Below, piece after piece: positions 31,995-61,158 of a stretch of DNA of 64,000 nt (position 1 is the first letter of the stretch; each line of letters starts with the position of its first letter). Under the pieces are notes generated by a model. The model searched no databases and had not been told where the DNA came from. It saw only the letters and a list, made by a program, of their open reading frames with translations. Position numbers and translations under genes: made by a program. The stretch is from Candidatus Omnitrophota bacterium (GTDB lineage Bacteria > Omnitrophota > Gorgyraeia > JABMRG01 > JAFGKX01): assembly GCA_043797125.1 (NCBI GenBank), contig JAZDPX010000038.1, forward strand, positions 4,071 to 68,070, written 5' to 3'.

Positions 31995-32532
31995 TTAGAA
32001 TTCTATTTGCCCTGATTAAATAGCCTATTCCTGAAAGGGCGGTAAAAAAAGCTGCAGCTATCCATAAACAATATGAATATTTAAACTGTAAAAGCACTGC
32101 TATAACTGTAAGCATCTGCAGGGCGGTAGTGAGCTTGCCGAGTGTACTAGGGCTTATATCAAGTTTTCCTGTAATCATGTGTATAATAACGGAGCCTAAA
32201 ATTATAAAGATATCCCTGCTTATAACAATAATGATGACCCATGGCGGGATTTTAAACTCCTGCGGAAGGGCAGCTATTATAGATAAAGATACGAAGCCGC
32301 TTAATATAAGCAGCTTATCCGCTATCGGGTCAAGGAACGTGCCTAATCTTGTCTTTTGATAATATTTACGCGCAATATAGCCGTCAACAGCGTCTGTCAA
32401 AGTTGATATGGCAAATATTACAAGCGCGATAAAACGCAAAAAATCTGTCTCTGGGCTGTAATAGATCAAACAGGTTACAAAAAAAGGTATTAATAATATC
32501 CGGACAATCGTAATTTTGTTTGCCAGGCTCAT
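31978..32532 (-). CDS. CDP-alcohol phosphatidyltransferase family protein (paralog 1).
   Basis: DAVDGYIARKYYQKTRLGTFLDPIADK matches the CDP-OH transferase motif DG-x2-AR-x8-G-x3-D-x3-D. Confidence 0.75.
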   Translation of the reverse strand: MSLANKITIVRILLIPFFVTCLIYYSPETDFLRFIALVIFAISTLTDAVDGYIARKYYQKTRLGTFLDPIADKLLILSGFVSLSIIAALPQEFKIPPWVIIIVISRDIFIILGSVIIHMITGKLDISPSTLGKLTTALQMLTVIAVLLQFKYSYCLWIAAAFFTALSGIGYLIRANRILNESQQ

Positions 32533-57976: not shown

Positions 57977-58558
57977 ATGTCTGACGCTACCACCAGGGCA
58001 TTTATAGCGATCTCTCTTACCAGGCAATTACATGATGAGTTATCTATTCTGCAGGATAAATTAAAACAAAGCAACGCTGATGTAAAATGGTCCGAACCTG
58101 AAAATATTCACCTTACCTTAAAATTCCTGGGCAATATCACTGACGAGCAGATTAAAAATGTGGTTTTAAGCCTTAAGAAAATTTCTTCCGGCTTTAATGC
58201 CTTTTCTGTTCATCTGGCGCAAGTGGGCGCATTTCCTAAAACTTCATACCCGCGCGTTATATGGGTTGGCATGGATGAAGGCGCTGAAACTGTAAAGAGG
58301 CTTAATCAATCTATTGAAAACGAATTAGAGGCTTTGGGTTTGCGCAAAGAGACTAGAGAGTTCTCGTGCCATCTTACATTAGGAAGGGTGCGTTCCGTAA
58401 AAAATAAGCAGGGCTTAACTAATATAATTGAAAAGGAAAAAGATTTTACTTCCGCTTACAGGGTTTTGATTGAGGACATTATTCTTTTTAAATCTACGCT
58501 TACTAAAAAAGGGCCCATCTACGAGCCTATTTTTAAAGGCAGCCTTATTAAAACCTGA
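57977..58558 (+). CDS. thpR: RNA 2',3'-cyclic phosphodiesterase (2H family, ThpR/LigT).
   Basis: Two H-x-T-x motifs are present (HLTLKFLG and HLTLGRV). Confidence 0.8.
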   Translation: MSDATTRAFIAISLTRQLHDELSILQDKLKQSNADVKWSEPENIHLTLKFLGNITDEQIKNVVLSLKKISSGFNAFSVHLAQVGAFPKTSYPRVIWVGMDEGAETVKRLNQSIENELEALGLRKETREFSCHLTLGRVRSVKNKQGLTNIIEKEKDFTSAYRVLIEDIILFKSTLTKKGPIYEPIFKGSLIKT

Positions 58559-58977
58559 AGTATAACATTCGTATATACAGCGCAGATAATATCATCGAGC
58601 ATAATCCCTGATGCGCCGTTAAGCTTCTCAGCCTGTTTAGCCGGCGGCGGTTTTATTATATCCAGCAGCCTGTATATAAAAAATCCGGTCAAGATAACCC
58701 ATAATCTAGCGGGCAACCCTAAATAAACCAGGCACATGCCGGCTATTTCGTCAATAACTATCTTGCGCGGGTCTTTTATGCCGTAAAGCTTTTCTGCAAT
58801 GCCGGCAGTTAAAAACCCCAGAAATACCAAGAGCAGGCATGCAATCACGTAAAGTAGAAAAAACTCATGCATCTGCAAAAATATCAAGACACCCAAAATA
58901 CTGCCTGTTGTCCCGGGTGCAATAGGTGAATATCCAAGATACAAACCGCTTGCGACTAATTTTATAACGGTTTTCAT
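58519..58977 (-). CDS. pgpA: Phosphatidylglycerophosphatase A.
   Basis: The protein contains GLYLGYSPIAPGTTGSILGVLIF and VIDEIAGM. The start MKTVIK at 58977 lies inside the hairpin element. Confidence 0.8.
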   Translation of the reverse strand: MKTVIKLVASGLYLGYSPIAPGTTGSILGVLIFLQMHEFFLLYVIACLLLVFLGFLTAGIAEKLYGIKDPRKIVIDEIAGMCLVYLGLPARLWVILTGFFIYRLLDIIKPPPAKQAEKLNGASGIMLDDIICAVYTNVILQVLIRLPLKIGS

Positions 58978-59050
58978 CCCGCACCTTTTTTTATTCATCC
59001 TGCACCCTTTTAGACATCTCCATTGAATGTTTAAAAGGTGCGGGATTCAT
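58975..59050 (-). promoter_or_regulatory. Perfect inverted repeat that sequesters the pgpA RBS and start codon (AAAAGGTGCGGGATGAA paired with TTCATCCCGCACCTTTT).
   Basis: Copies lie at 58975..58994 and 59031..59050 in opposite orientation, with a 36-nt spacer that contains a degenerate third copy. Confidence 0.55.
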
Positions 59051-59628
59051 TTTAGCGATTTCAGGTTATCCTTAAGAAAAAATATCCCCGATGTCAATGT
59101 TAATAACACAGTTACAAGCATCATTATATATATGGCCTCGTGCATAAAATAATCTATTCCCGCATTCCACCAGTTAAAGCTAAAGATGTGTTCGCCTAGC
59201 TGCGTAATCGTAAGGTAAATTAAAACAACAAATATAGATGTCATCTGCGAAACTGTTTTGTGCTTGCCGGCTTTTGCAGCGGGTATCACCTTCTTTTTGC
59301 TTAGCAATGTAATTCTCATCCCCGTAATAACCAACTCTCTTAAAATTATTATTACAACCATCCACGCGGGGACTATCCCAAGCTGAACAAAGCTTAAAAA
59401 AGCAGACAATATCAGCACCTTATCCGCAACAGGGTCCATCAATTTGCCAAAATCCGTAACAACTTTAAGCTCTCTTGCCAATTTACCGTCGTAATAATCT
59501 GTTAATGACGCTAGAAAAAATGCAAAAAGCGCGCACAGGTTCGCATAAGGCCATTTTAAAAACAAGAAAAACATAAAAATAAAGCTTAAGCCTATGCGCG
59601 ATAATGTCAGTTTATTAGGTAAATTCAT
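59047..59628 (-). CDS. pgsA: CDP-diacylglycerol--glycerol-3-phosphate 3-phosphatidyltransferase (CDP-alcohol phosphatidyltransferase paralog 2).
   Basis: DYYDGKLARELKVVTDFGKLMDPVADK is the CDP-OH transferase motif. It lies adjacent to pgpA. Confidence 0.8.
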   Translation of the reverse strand: MNLPNKLTLSRIGLSFIFMFFLFLKWPYANLCALFAFFLASLTDYYDGKLARELKVVTDFGKLMDPVADKVLILSAFLSFVQLGIVPAWMVVIIILRELVITGMRITLLSKKKVIPAAKAGKHKTVSQMTSIFVVLIYLTITQLGEHIFSFNWWNAGIDYFMHEAIYIMMLVTVLLTLTSGIFFLKDNLKSLK

Positions 59629-59725
59629 CCCGCACCTTTTTCTATTCTATCTTTTATATCCATAAAATTATTGTTATTCATTTTGGTTTTTGATTTTGAA
59701 TGCTAGAAAGGTGCGGGATTCATTT
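59622..59725 (-). promoter_or_regulatory. Second perfect inverted repeat of the same 19-mer, sequestering the pgsA RBS and start codon.
   Basis: Copies lie at 59622..59645 and 59703..59725, giving the mRNA a 5' anti-sequence, a 57-nt loop and then aaaaaGGTGcgggATG. Confidence 0.55.
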
Positions 59726-61052
59726 AAACCGGCTCTCCAGTTAAATCATATTCCATTGTATCTGTTATTTTCACCTTTAGAAATTCGCCCGGCTTAGCCT
59801 GTTTTGCCTTAACATATACGACTCCGTCAACTTCAGGCGCGTCGTATTGGCTTCTGGCTATGTAAAAACTATCCTTGTCTTTTTCATCGATTAAAACTTC
59901 CAGCGTTTTACCCAGCCAGCGCTTATTGACATCTTCTGAAATCTCTTGCTGTGTTTTCATTATAGCATCCAGCCTTTGCCTTTTTATTGAACCCGTAATT
60001 TGCTTTTTGTAATTATAAGCGGGGGTCTTTTCCTCCCTCGAATAAATAAAGGCTCCCAATCTCTCAAATTTTACTTCCTTAATAAAATCAAGAAGCTGGA
60101 TAAATTCCGCATCAGTCTCTCCGGGAAAACCCACGATGACGGATGTTCTCAAAACAACGCCCGGTATTCTTTTACGGATCTTATTTATTAGGGATTCAAT
60201 TTGAACCTTTGTTGTTCTGCGGTTCATCTTTTCTAATATTGTATCGCTAATATGTTGTATTGGCAAATCAATATATTTACATACGGCGTTTTCATTTTTT
60301 ATAACATCCATCAGCTCGTCTGTAAAATGCCGCGGATGGGTGTAAAGAAGCCTTATCCAGTGCGCTTTTTTTAACGCCGCGATTTTTTTAAGCAAATCAG
60401 TTAATTTGTATTTTCCATAAATATCGCTGCCGTATGAGGTGGTGTCCTGCGCTATGATATTTAGTTCTGAAATTTCACTTTTGGCGGTTATACTTTCAAT
60501 TTCTTTAATTATTGAATCCATAGGCCTGCTTCTGTAGTTTCCCCTGATTTTATAGATAGCGCAATATGAACATCTGTTGTTACAGCCTTCGGCTATCTTT
60601 ATGTATGTTGAATATGAAGGCGTTAGCGACAGGCGTGGAAATTTATGTGTATATATTTTTGTGGGTTCGCTTACGTAAGTGGCTTTTTTGTTTTTGAGTA
60701 CGGTAGAAACCGCGTCTGTAATTTTATCAAAATCAGATGTGCCCAAAAAGGCGTCCACTTCAGGAATCTTTTTTTCCAGCGCCTTATGATATCTCTGCGC
60801 CAGGCAACCCGCGACAATTAAAAATTTAATCTTGCCTTCCTGCTTTAATTTGGCTGCCTGCAGGATTACATCTATTGCCTCTTGTTTTGCGTCTTCAATG
60901 AACGCGCAGGTGTTTATAAGGGCAATATCGCAATTTTCCGCGCTCATCTTTATTGTGTAGCCGGCTTTTTTTAAGGCCCCGAGCATTACTTCAGAATCAA
61001 CCATGTTGCGAGGGCAACCCAAGCTCACTATGCCAACTGTCGGGGTTTTCAT
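59724..61052 (-). CDS. rimO: Ribosomal protein S12 methylthiotransferase RimO (MiaB-family radical SAM).
   Basis: The N-terminus GIVSLGCPRNMVDSE is the MTTase motif. IAEGCNNRCSYCAI is the radical-SAM CX3CX2C, and a TRAM-like C-terminus is present. The start is MKTPTVG at 61052, preceded by TTGCTT-18-TATAAT. Confidence 0.8.
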   Translation of the reverse strand: MKTPTVGIVSLGCPRNMVDSEVMLGALKKAGYTIKMSAENCDIALINTCAFIEDAKQEAIDVILQAAKLKQEGKIKFLIVAGCLAQRYHKALEKKIPEVDAFLGTSDFDKITDAVSTVLKNKKATYVSEPTKIYTHKFPRLSLTPSYSTYIKIAEGCNNRCSYCAIYKIRGNYRSRPMDSIIKEIESITAKSEISELNIIAQDTTSYGSDIYGKYKLTDLLKKIAALKKAHWIRLLYTHPRHFTDELMDVIKNENAVCKYIDLPIQHISDTILEKMNRRTTKVQIESLINKIRKRIPGVVLRTSVIVGFPGETDAEFIQLLDFIKEVKFERLGAFIYSREEKTPAYNYKKQITGSIKRQRLDAIMKTQQEISEDVNKRWLGKTLEVLIDEKDKDSFYIARSQYDAPEVDGVVYVKAKQAKPGEFLKVKITDTMEYDLTGEPV

Positions 61053-61117
61053 GGTGGGTATTATAGCACTACAGAGGTATCTTAAGCAAGAATTATGCGC
61101 TTGAGGCTTAGTGATAT

Positions 61118-61158
61118 GAAGTGTCATTCCCATCCCCGCGAAAGCGGGGAAAGTGGGA
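61118..61158 (-). terminator. Nested hairpin (cattccca/tgggaatg around ccccgc-gaaa-gcgggg) downstream of the radical-SAM paralog.
   Basis: It belongs to the same sequence family as 57919..57948. Confidence 0.4.

Follow-up and report, generated by a model that had tools for sequence, protein, structure and literature searches.

The two consecutive phospholipid genes pgsA and pgpA of a Candidatus Omnitrophota bacterium are each preceded by an inverted repeat, one arm of which carries the ribosome-binding site (RBS) and the start codon of the gene. They lie in a 64,000-nt stretch of contig JAZDPX010000038.1 (assembly GCA_043797125.1), which was analysed as a whole and is referred to as the window; all positions are counted from its first letter. 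Why do two neighbouring genes start within the same kind of hairpin? In a preliminary description of the locus, a dedicated post-transcriptional switch of membrane-lipid genes was proposed, either an RNA thermometer or a hairpin opened by a ligand or a protein. The analysis presented here leads to a different answer: the two hairpins are very likely short derivatives of a mini-element, which inserts into start codons and whose full-length form encodes a GIY-YIG nuclease. The hairpins covering the RBSs would thus, with a high degree of probability, be short copies of a dispersed mobile element and no dedicated lipid-gene switch.

Architecture of the two inverted repeats

The genes of the locus and the parts of the two repeats, designated copy 1 and copy 2, are as follows (ORF, open reading frame; SD, Shine-Dalgarno sequence):

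59724..61133, minus strand: gene for a rimO-type radical-SAM methylthiotransferase (ORF; Pfam UPF0004, Radical_SAM and TRAM; stop codon TAA 59726-59724)
59047..59628, minus strand: pgsA, CDP-diacylglycerol-glycerol-3-phosphate 3-phosphatidyltransferase (ORF; PF01066, CDP-OH_P_transf)
58519..58977, minus strand: pgpA, phosphatidylglycerophosphatase A (Pfam PF04608; true start 58977)
59628..59718, minus strand: copy 1, short element in the rimO/pgsA spacer, core TCCC...GGGA, 91 nt
59719..59723, minus strand: old pgsA start codon ATG of copy 1 (59723-59721) with the 5' TGAA copy (59722-59719)
59707..59719, minus strand: 5' arm of copy 1, ATCCCGCACCTTT, pairing with 59627-59639
59703..59723, minus strand: mini-ORF of copy 1, MNPAPF-stop, which begins at the old start codon and crosses the 5' arm
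59624..59639, minus strand: 3' arm of copy 1, AAAGGTGCGGGAT (59639-59627), with the SD GGTG (59636-59633)
59624..59628, minus strand: rebuilt pgsA ATG of copy 1 (59628-59626) and 3' TGAA copy (59627-59624)
58977..59045, minus strand: copy 2, short element in the pgsA/pgpA spacer, core TCCC...GGGA, 69 nt, double-3'-arm subfamily
59046..59050, minus strand: old pgpA start codon ATG of copy 2 (59050-59048) with the 5' TGAA copy (59049-59046)
59033..59046, minus strand: 5' arm of copy 2, ATCCCGCACCTTTT
58991..59050, minus strand: mini-ORF of copy 2, MNPAPFKHSMEMSKRVQDE-stop, 19 codons, the stop ending 13 nt 5' of the pgpA ATG
58993..59011, minus strand: inner degenerate 3' arm of copy 2, AAAAGGGTGCAGGATGAAT, with an in-frame decoy ATG (58998-58996)
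58973..58989, minus strand: outer 3' arm of copy 2, AAAAGGTGCGGGAT (58989-58976), with the SD GGTG (58985-58982)
58973..58977, minus strand: rebuilt pgpA ATG of copy 2 (58977-58975) and 3' TGAA copy (58976-58973)

The inverted repeats are thus present on the minus strand before both genes, as described previously; their dimensions, however, need to be corrected. Instead of a perfect stem of about 19 bp, copy 1 has 13 perfect base pairs (ATCCCGCACCTTT/AAAGGTGCGGGAT), followed by a GA/GA mismatch and 5 further base pairs, so that its full arms (59707-59726 and 59620-59639) are complementary at 18 of 20 positions, and the perfect stretch of copy 2 comprises 14 bp (14/14 between 59033-59046 and 58976-58989). 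The arms are separated by 67 nt and 43 nt, respectively, and not by loops of 36 or 57 nt, and the 5' half of copy 1 ends in CCUUUC rather than CCUUUU. The location of the SD sequence GGUG and of the start codons of pgsA (59628-59626) and pgpA (58977-58975) in the 3' arms was confirmed. Three features had escaped notice: the duplicated ATGAA, which is found at either end of each repeat; the position of the 5' arms, which start 3 nt from the rimO stop codon in copy 1 and directly at the pgsA stop codon (0 nt) in copy 2; and the third, degenerate 3' arm, which lies in copy 2 at a distance of 21 nt 5' of the pgpA ATG and in the same frame. The pgsA stop codon TGA (59049-59047) falls within the 5' TGAA copy of copy 2, and the retained old pgpA ATG overlaps it.

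The repeats are not a product of chance, as had already been supposed. The 10-mer core of the arms, with at most one mismatch, occurs eight times in the window against 1.9 expected occurrences, a count that was reached in 0 of 100 shuffles, and its exact copies are the four arms of copies 1 and 2 and none other. A profile of the repeat family, from which the window sequences had been left out, has only two matches in the 64 kb, copy 2 (E 1e-12) and copy 1 (E 4e-11), both of which score 15-20 bits higher in the gene-sense orientation. The architecture also affects gene calling. The longest pgpA ORF starts seven codons too early, at 58998, because of the decoy ATG in the inner arm, and the pgpA start is likely mis-called at 58998-58996 by automatic annotation. 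The start at 58977 is backed by homology (MKTVIKL), and an orthologue from another genome (locus L107) aligns from residue 1; the pgpA start is therefore corrected to 58977.

The spacers as insertions

Do the spacers belong to the ancestral operon? The DNA surrounding pgsA was compared at seven loci of relatives (L001-L007), whose PgsA proteins are 68-75 % identical to that of the window. At all seven loci, both the rimO/pgsA and the pgsA/pgpA junction are plain 4-nt ATGA overlaps without a spacer (...gcggtATGAACC..., that is ..gcggtATGAAC.., for rimO/pgsA and ...ttaaaATGAAAAC... for pgsA/pgpA), and no copy of the element is found anywhere in these loci. In the window, both junctions read ATGAA-T(CCCGCACC...GGTGCGGG)A-TGAA. 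Judged by this comparison, the window spacers are insertions with inverted ends and a duplicated junction. No strain of the window organism with an empty junction was found in the metagenome collection.

The junctions of pgsA are not occupied in a uniform manner elsewhere either. In L107 (JAFGKX01, PgsA 69 % identical), the pgsA/pgpA junction is filled and the rimO/pgsA junction is empty. A further copy (L014) precedes a CDP-alcohol phosphatidyltransferase gene, and the corresponding site of the window orthologue (start 32532) is empty; this orthologue, at 31996-32532 on the minus strand, is a second CDP-alcohol phosphatidyltransferase paralogue (PF01066), which starts with ATGAGC. A single ancient insertion at pgsA/pgpA, shared by the window and L107, is disfavoured, since the interiors of the copies cluster by genome and not by locus: the interior of copy 2 is closest to CAZMYR01 copies at unrelated genes (L027, 0.80; L028, 0.78), and that of L107 is closest to L119 of the same genome. 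As far as the interiors can tell, this pattern favours independent hits on a recurrent ATGAA target, and concerted evolution within a genome is also possible. No orthologous copy common to deeply diverged genomes has been demonstrated.

A dispersed family that targets start codons

When 185,579 species-representative genomes were scanned for the two arms around an interior of 45-75 nt (22 specified bases), the arms TCCCGCACCTTYT...ARAAGGTGCGGGA were found at at least 119 loci in approximately 58 assemblies of metagenome-assembled genomes (MAGs), while about 1-2 loci would be expected by chance according to our own estimate. By record title, about 52 of these loci belong to Omnitrophota, 36 to Planctomycetota, 15 to the candidate phyla radiation (CPR/Patescibacteria), and 16 are other or unlabelled. 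Among the matches listed, CAZMYR01 has at least seven copies, JBFZAU01 six and JAFGKX01 five, and the window has two adjacent copies in 64 kb; CAZMYR01 carries its copies at other genes although its pgsA junctions are empty. A scan of viral contigs gave no match, and there is thus no sign of a phage vector. The open-access PMC and bioRxiv literature yielded no earlier description, so that the family seems to be undescribed so far.

The following statistics refer to 120 copies among the matches listed, of which approximately 49-51 form a start-codon class. The flanks of 86 of the 120 copies match over at least 3 nt (TGAA in 49, TAAA in 18), compared to a mean of 22.6 and a maximum of 36 in shuffles, and at least eight different 4-mers are duplicated; TGAA, TAAA, TGGA, TCAA, TTAA and TGCA are among the duplications known from the family as a whole. 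Outside the fixed positions, the arms covary: position 13 forms a T:A pair in 65 and a C:G pair in 47 copies. A profile search of 860 kb of loci added nine unbiased matches, among them copies with the arms CCCCGCACC..GGTGCGGGG and CCCCACACC..GGTGTGGGG; decayed copies are therefore few.

In the TGAA class, an A precedes the duplication in 42 copies, a G in 5, a T in 3 and a C in none, which means that this base always completes a start codon. The rebuilt ATG, which consists of the last A of the element and the duplicated TG, opens a long ORF in most of these copies, and for about half of them another long ORF terminates at the upstream TGA, resulting in an ATGA overlap. The downstream genes are unrelated to each other; they encode, for instance, a Mur ligase, a ParA-type ATPase, a pantoate ligase, a nucleoside triphosphate transferase, a class-V aminotransferase, a transaldolase, a diaminopimelate epimerase, NrdR and an RND transporter. 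The Pfam models of these proteins begin within residues 1-7, which identifies the starts as true N-termini. As a neutral expectation, the window has approximately 18 gene starts of the form NTGAA and 44 TGAA/TTCA sites in non-ORF DNA, and passive tolerance would hence place about 29 % of the TGAA-type copies at gene starts, whereas the value among those listed is approximately 100 %. No target motif extends around the duplication beyond the A at position -1 and a weak SD zone. Copies of the TAAA class, most of which stem from CPR, occupy mixed sites, namely stop codons, positions just 5' of an ATG and plain intergenic DNA. One Saccharibacteria copy (L079 2727-2795) lies directly 5' of a tRNA-like sequence (gggctgtagctcagtgg). 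The preliminary description had named a generic dispersed repeat found outside RBSs as an argument against a switch. The element is indeed such a repeat, though most of its copies do sit at RBSs, because its target is the start codon itself.

The short copies share a common layout. If they are oriented by the duplication, they read NTGAA-TCCCGCACCTTCTAAATATTCAA ... GAATAgAAAGAAGGTGCGGGA-TGAA, and about 45 of 49 listed copies have the same polarity with respect to the gene. The old start codon opens a mini-ORF, MNPAP[S/F/L], which in 17 of 51 listed copies extends through the entire element and terminates at the TGA within the rebuilt ATGA (...GAG-stop). The six-codon version MNPAPF-stop of window copy 1 recurs in L028, L071, L080 and L106, CAZMYR01 relatives being among these. 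Of 51 interiors, 25 lack stop codons in the frame of the old start, compared to 13 and 12 in the two remaining frames; the sample includes closely related copies. The double-3'-arm architecture of copy 2 is also found in L027, L028, L029, L071, L080, L106, L107, L114 and L119, and can be explained by L114, in which a short copy is nested just inside the 3' arm.

Two other kinds of repeat were encountered during these searches. Outlier matches in Bacteroidetes, Cloacimonadales and Porticoccaceae are different palindromes with the core only. Those of the Bacteroidetes assembly JAOQAG01 (L033 3376-3448, L093 7714-7786, L108 672-743) and of the Cloacimonadales assembly CAXXSY01 (L008, L088) are multi-copy perfect palindromes, which have only the ATCCCGCACCT core in common with the family, lack the TGAA duplication and are probably unrelated. 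At about ten Omnitrophota/Planctomycetota loci (L053 3040-3210, L064, L101, L104, L117, L122, L049, L045, L020 and L086), the element lies between two inverted copies of another small palindrome (AACTTACGGAACGAAGTGAACGTAAGTT..CCGAATT). Each of its units is a hairpin, and the palindrome looks like a second dispersed family, possibly serving as a preferred landing site (central TTAA/TTTA). The idea that the flanks represent a longer form of the element was discarded, as they belong to this different repeat family.

A full-length element encoding a GIY-YIG nuclease

Which enzyme could mobilise the short copies? A search for a transposase between arm pairs 150-4000 nt apart brought out a GIY-YIG ORF instead (PF01541, E 2e-17), which is enclosed by the same arms at two places in L069 and at one in L114. 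In the latter, the unit occupies the start codon of a host gene, is flanked by the TGAA duplication and carries the nested short copy mentioned above. A protein search yielded 94 homologues of 57-123 amino acids (most of them 85-115), many from Omnitrophota and Sedimentisphaerales. The 5' arm, translated from the host ATG, appears as an N-terminal xNPAPS in 22 of these, the 3' arm before TGA as a C-terminal GAG/GTG in 32, and 16 have both termini. In every contig examined, the nuclease gene shares 4 nt with the host gene that follows it, nrdR or an RND transporter gene, and an overlap with the preceding gene is frequent too. The DNA at the junctions reads ATGAA/CCCCGCACC...GGTGCGGGG/TGAA; in one example, ggaaaatATGAA/CCCCGCACCTTCTTTAAATTCAATA is followed by ATG TAC CAT ... 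AAG AAA GAA GGT GCG GGG/TGAagtgtccg, and NrdR restarts at GTG.

A metagenome scan that made no use of the flanks (query: 5' arm, linker and ATGTAYCAYG) gave 22 loci, comprising 12 full-length copies of 295-313 nt, one copy of 429 nt and five deletion intermediates of 71-145 nt, in which nuclease codons are still present. The 4-nt flanks match in 14 of 17 complete copies (TGAA 8, TGGA 5, TGCA 1), and at 19 of the 22 loci the host start leads into the ORF in frame and without interruption. The ends of the full-length elements align with the ends of the window copies. An alignment of 22 nuclease sequences shows invariant Y, G, R, H and E columns, and the nuclease profile matches the solved structures of BH0048 (1ZG2, E 1e-12), EF2693 (1YWL, E 1e-9) and SLX1 (8e-6 to 1e-4). 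For one member of the family, a weak match to TIGR01453, the model of group I intron endonucleases, was obtained below the threshold.

Taken together, these data suggest the following course of events. The parent element would be a unit of approximately 0.3 kb, in which inverted arms of 13-14 nt (YCCCGCACCTTYT ... ARAAGGTGCGGGR) enclose a single gene for a UPF0213/SLX1-type nuclease of 90-100 amino acids. Its insertion would generate a 4-nt target duplication, usually TGAA, which in Omnitrophota/Planctomycetota would almost always consist of the TG of a start codon and the next two bases (NTG/AA). The original start codon of the host and its upstream signals would then drive the ORF ATG AAT CCC GCA CCT TCT (MNPAPS...), which in the full-length form enters the nuclease and ends with GAA GGT GCG GGA TGA (...EGAG-stop). 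The last base of the element and the duplicated TG would rebuild the host start codon (ATG/GTG), which overlaps the TGA stop as ATGA/GTGA, and the 3' arm would supply an SD sequence (GAAGGUG) 4 nt 5' of the rebuilt start. Short copies would have lost the nuclease by internal deletion while keeping both ends, thereby becoming non-autonomous elements of the MITE type (miniature inverted-repeat transposable elements), and two of them would have landed in the ATGAA junctions rimO/pgsA and pgsA/pgpA. The full-length and the short forms can be linked in this way because the deletion intermediates form a graded series.

The same intermediates, with their remaining nuclease codons, are compatible with another history, in which the window copies decayed in place from full-length elements and never moved as short ones. 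Such a decay would also explain the uniform sense polarity of the short copies. Yet similar interiors are found at different loci within a lineage, as seen for copy 2 and the two CAZMYR01 copies and for a 75-nt class of short copies that is found at many genes, and movement of copies that were already short is the easier explanation of this likeness. Decay in place is therefore regarded as doubtful, albeit a serious candidate.

With regard to the enzyme, the inverted ends and the 4-nt duplication that varies from site to site are the classic signature of a staggered cut by a DDE transposase, and we know of no GIY-YIG transposase. The family might thus consist of MITEs whose arms are mobilised in trans by some other insertion sequence (IS), and the GIY-YIG gene might be cargo or a secondary invader. 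However, no transposase was detected between distant arm pairs in 860 kb of loci, and the nuclease is the only ORF found inside the arms. Moreover, the arms have remained in-frame parts of the ORF across nuclease copies that are only 60-80 % identical, which argues for a long co-evolution as one unit, and the graded deletion series joins the full-length and short forms. Mobilisation by a DDE transposase therefore appears rather unlikely. A likeness of GAAGGTGCG to the terminal repeat of IS5 was discarded, since its polarity relative to the element end is reversed. If instead the nuclease mobilises the element, a reading that the sequences leave just short of an even chance, it would represent a new class of minimal transposons (approximately 0.3 kb, hairpin-forming ends, 4-nt duplication) that parasitise translation initiation, and the window hairpins would be its non-autonomous progeny.

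Several elements appear to have used sites created by earlier copies. At nrdR, elements in L134 (2405-2500) and L135 (611-706) harbour a short, degenerate copy, which separates the 5' arm from the nuclease ATG, and together with L114 they indicate that elements repeatedly land in TGAA sites made by their predecessors. The dCMP-deaminase/nrdR junction harbours a full-length nuclease element in L127, L131-L135, L137, L146, L147 and L150, the nucleases of which are 65-80 % identical; this junction is either a very old, maintained insertion or a recurrent hot spot. More distant GIY-YIG proteins of 85 amino acids (MFFVYILKS...; P0187, P0194, P0198 and P0204) are devoid of arm-derived termini and may form a sister family, a hint that small GIY-YIG genes might more generally possess termini of their own. 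An arm-less homologue in L076 (2100-2480) lies between tRNA-like sequences, and small GIY-YIG genes may thus associate with tRNA genes.

Consequences for RNA folding and translation

Since the arms are complementary, the mRNA can pair the 5' arm with the 3' arm, which bears the SD sequence and the start codon. The folding energy is -29.4 kcal/mol (z -4.8) for copy 1 and -25.4 kcal/mol (z -3.0) for copy 2. The occlusion of the RBS claimed for both genes holds for copy 1, whose SD sequence has a predicted probability of being unpaired of 0.000 at 4-37 °C and 0.005 at 80 °C and whose hairpin also pairs two of the three bases of the AUG. It does not hold in full for copy 2: its SD sequence is predicted to be 35-44 % unpaired, since the inner arm is a rival partner of the 5' arm, and it becomes more closed as the temperature rises. 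In the model, the temperature series thus speaks against an RNA thermometer, as the stem of copy 1 stays closed beyond the physiological range. Nor is a ligand-binding aptamer likely, as both the sequence and the length of the interior (45-75 nt and more) are free to vary. In line with this, nothing relevant was found in Rfam at the gathering score in the whole window or, apart from noise, at E<=1 in 57.5-61.5 kb. No promoter or terminator signal was detected within either window element, so that a role as outward promoter or terminator is unsupported.

How much is left of a dedicated riboregulator, be it a thermometer or a hairpin opened by a ligand or a protein, that co-ordinates pgsA and pgpA? 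It would account for the SD sequence and AUG in the 3' arm and for the predicted closure of both in copy 1, and 4 of 51 listed start-codon copies do lie at phospholipid-type genes (pgsA and pgpA of the window, pgpA of L107 and the gene of L014). This share is an apparent, small excess, and such proteins typically start with MN or MK (the CDP-alcohol transferases with MN, ATGAAY), which offers a ready-made target. The spacers are absent from all relatives with PgsA identities of 68-75 %, whereas the same element, together with a target duplication and a nuclease-encoding parent, precedes many unrelated genes. The copies at pgpA in the window and in L107 belong to different genome-specific subfamilies, pointing to independent hits. 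The G+C-rich stem of 13-14 bp (-24 to -26 kcal/mol) remains closed up to 80 °C in the model, and the variable interior contains no aptamer-like core. A riboregulator of this kind is therefore considered extremely improbable. A false lead is thus removed at this locus, where there is no sign of a lipid-specific riboregulator, and the hairpin at the RBS is best understood as an incidental consequence of a selfish element having inverted ends, and not as a sensor.

How, then, might pgsA and pgpA be translated? The geometry of both copies fits translational coupling: the 5' pairing partner lies near the upstream stop codon, the mini-ORFs cross it, and the SD sequence and AUG are located in the 3' partner. 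Ribosomes that terminate at the end of rimO or pgsA, or that read the mini-ORFs, would unwind the 5' arm and free the RBS. If the 5' arm is held single-stranded in the folding model, the probability of the AUG being unpaired rises to 0.85 in copy 1 and 0.99 in copy 2. Coupling through unmasking of the RBS is thus plausible for copies 1 and 2, and pgsA and pgpA would thereby stay coupled to the upstream gene in place of the ancestral ATGA overlap.

It is tempting to speculate that the host now retains the inserted copies, for instance for strict coupling, for the ratio of RimO, PgsA and PgpA, or as a hairpin that is processed by RNase III or stabilises the transcript. The arms are perfect in many copies and change in a complementary manner, as seen at position 13 and in the pair CCCCACACC..GGTGTGGGG, the polarity is largely uniform, stop-free interiors are more frequent in the frame of the old start than in the others, and the decoy arm of copy 2 leaves its SD sequence partly open. 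However, conserved arms and complementary changes are equally expected of the ends of an active element, and the scarcity of decayed copies fits turnover as well as selection. Sense transcripts fold no weaker than antisense transcripts (-28.9 versus -26.5 kcal/mol), and no orthologous copy speaks for retention across deep divergence. Domestication of the copies thus seems clearly unlikely. The slightly higher stability in the sense orientation also eliminates a weaker sense hairpin as the cause of the polarity; the sense strand is set apart only by a purine/A-rich tract 5' of the SD arm.

Several points weigh against an origin of the window hairpins from a nuclease-encoding, start-codon-inserting element or against parts of this explanation. 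No GIY-YIG homologue is present within the 64-kb window, and the putative function of the nuclease as mobilising enzyme is deduced from its being the sole gene inside the arms. No extended target motif accounts for the near-exclusive location at start codons of the short copies, which themselves need no translation. Closely related copies, such as the 75-nt subfamily, inflate the numbers of in-frame and stop-free cases, and the phylum labels are NCBI record titles of MAGs, for which mis-binning is possible. Finally, even with an open 5' arm, the SD sequence of copy 1 has a predicted unpaired probability of just 0.12, owing to alternative pairings of lower strength, and its unmasking may therefore be incomplete.

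Apart from the two elements, the 3' end of pgpA and a gene for a LigT/ThpR-type 2'-5' RNA ligase (57977-58558, plus strand) overlap convergently by approximately 40 nt (58519-58558). This overlap is also present in the relatives L001 and L007, and a terminator-like hairpin (58527-58512) lies within it.

Significance and comparison with known systems

The repeat family described here is widespread in poorly studied phyla (Omnitrophota, Planctomycetota and CPR), rebuilds start codons and carries its own SD sequence. It will mislead gene callers by spurious MNPAPS.../...EGAG nuclease termini, shifted starts and apparent spacers inside operons, and motif hunters as well. At least one group of small UPF0213-type GIY-YIG proteins with solved structures may have a role as selfish elements. 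If the nuclease indeed mobilises its own gene, the family would constitute a class of transposons based on a nuclease fold that is not known for cut-and-paste movement and would be among the smallest autonomous elements; borrowing the start codon of the host and handing translation back would be an unusual strategy.

A number of known systems were considered and rejected. Palindrome-associated transposable elements (PATE) derived from IS200/IS605 have a subterminal hairpin at each end and insert 3' of a fixed tetranucleotide without duplication; in the family presented here, a single hairpin is formed from both ends, and the adjoining 4-mer, which differs from site to site, is present on either side. 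The core sites of integron attC, RYYYAAC ... GTTRRRY, do not correspond to ends that read TCCCGCACC ... GGTGCGGGA. The lack of a known Rfam family and the variable interior speak against a riboswitch or another structured cis-regulator. REP/REPIN sequences, which are mobilised by RAYTs, are short self-palindromes with a GTAG/CGTC tag and without target duplication (PMC3733652). The arms of the window copies are not self-palindromic, have no such tag and are accompanied by a 4-nt duplication, and REP/REPIN were thus excluded.

The nuclease invites comparison with the free-standing genes of GIY-YIG homing endonucleases (I-TevI, Seg/Mob type), which are selfish one-gene units between host genes. 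These enzymes have about 250 amino acids, DNA-binding domains and one cognate site, and lack inverted ends, duplications and MITE-like derivatives; the nuclease of the element, unlike them, is a bare catalytic domain of 85-100 amino acids. Its closest solved relatives, the UPF0213 proteins BH0048 and EF2693, are without assigned function, and no link between UPF0213 and mobility was found in the open-access PMC and bioRxiv literature. SLX1, in contrast, acts together with SLX4 on branched DNA in eukaryotes.

In translational coupling by unmasking of an RBS, the downstream RBS is paired with an upstream sequence, which is opened by the translating ribosome. In the window copies, it would be the opposite end of a mobile element that supplies the pairing partner. 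Compared to thermometers of the ROSE and fourU types, the stem in the window is far more stable, and it is not conserved at the locus.

The closest parallels are found among short repeats. The Correia/NEMIS elements of Neisseria duplicate TA and lie in ordinary intergenic DNA, whereas the family presented here duplicates T[G/A][A/G]A, sits on a start codon, which it rebuilds, and brings along an SD sequence; furthermore, its coding relative carries a GIY-YIG nuclease and no known transposase. Bacterial MITEs in general are short, non-coding and dispersed, have inverted ends and a target duplication, and their co-transcribed hairpins can alter gene expression (PMC10969869, PMC3184786). The window copies correspond to MITEs in several respects: their cores of 91 and 69 nt contain only remnant ORFs of 6 and 19 codons, the arms are perfect over 13-14 nt, the duplication varies between sites, the copies are present or absent at orthologous sites, and there is a longer coding relative with the same ends. 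REP2 of Neisseria and the IR sequences of Borrelia are repeats directly 5' of ORFs, which supply an RBS and an ATG fused to the gene (PMC3184786). REP2, however, has a promoter but neither terminal inverted repeats nor a target duplication or a coding parent, and in the window family the RBS and ATG belong to one of the two arms of a terminal hairpin. The palindromic elements of Rickettsia (RPE) are mobile palindromes that are tolerated through in-frame translation (PMC10969869). Inverted ends placed on a start codon and a parent with a nuclease gene are found in none of these precedents. While RPE insert within ORFs and join the host protein, the family found at pgsA and pgpA makes a separate upstream ORF and hands translation back to the host gene via an ATGA overlap.

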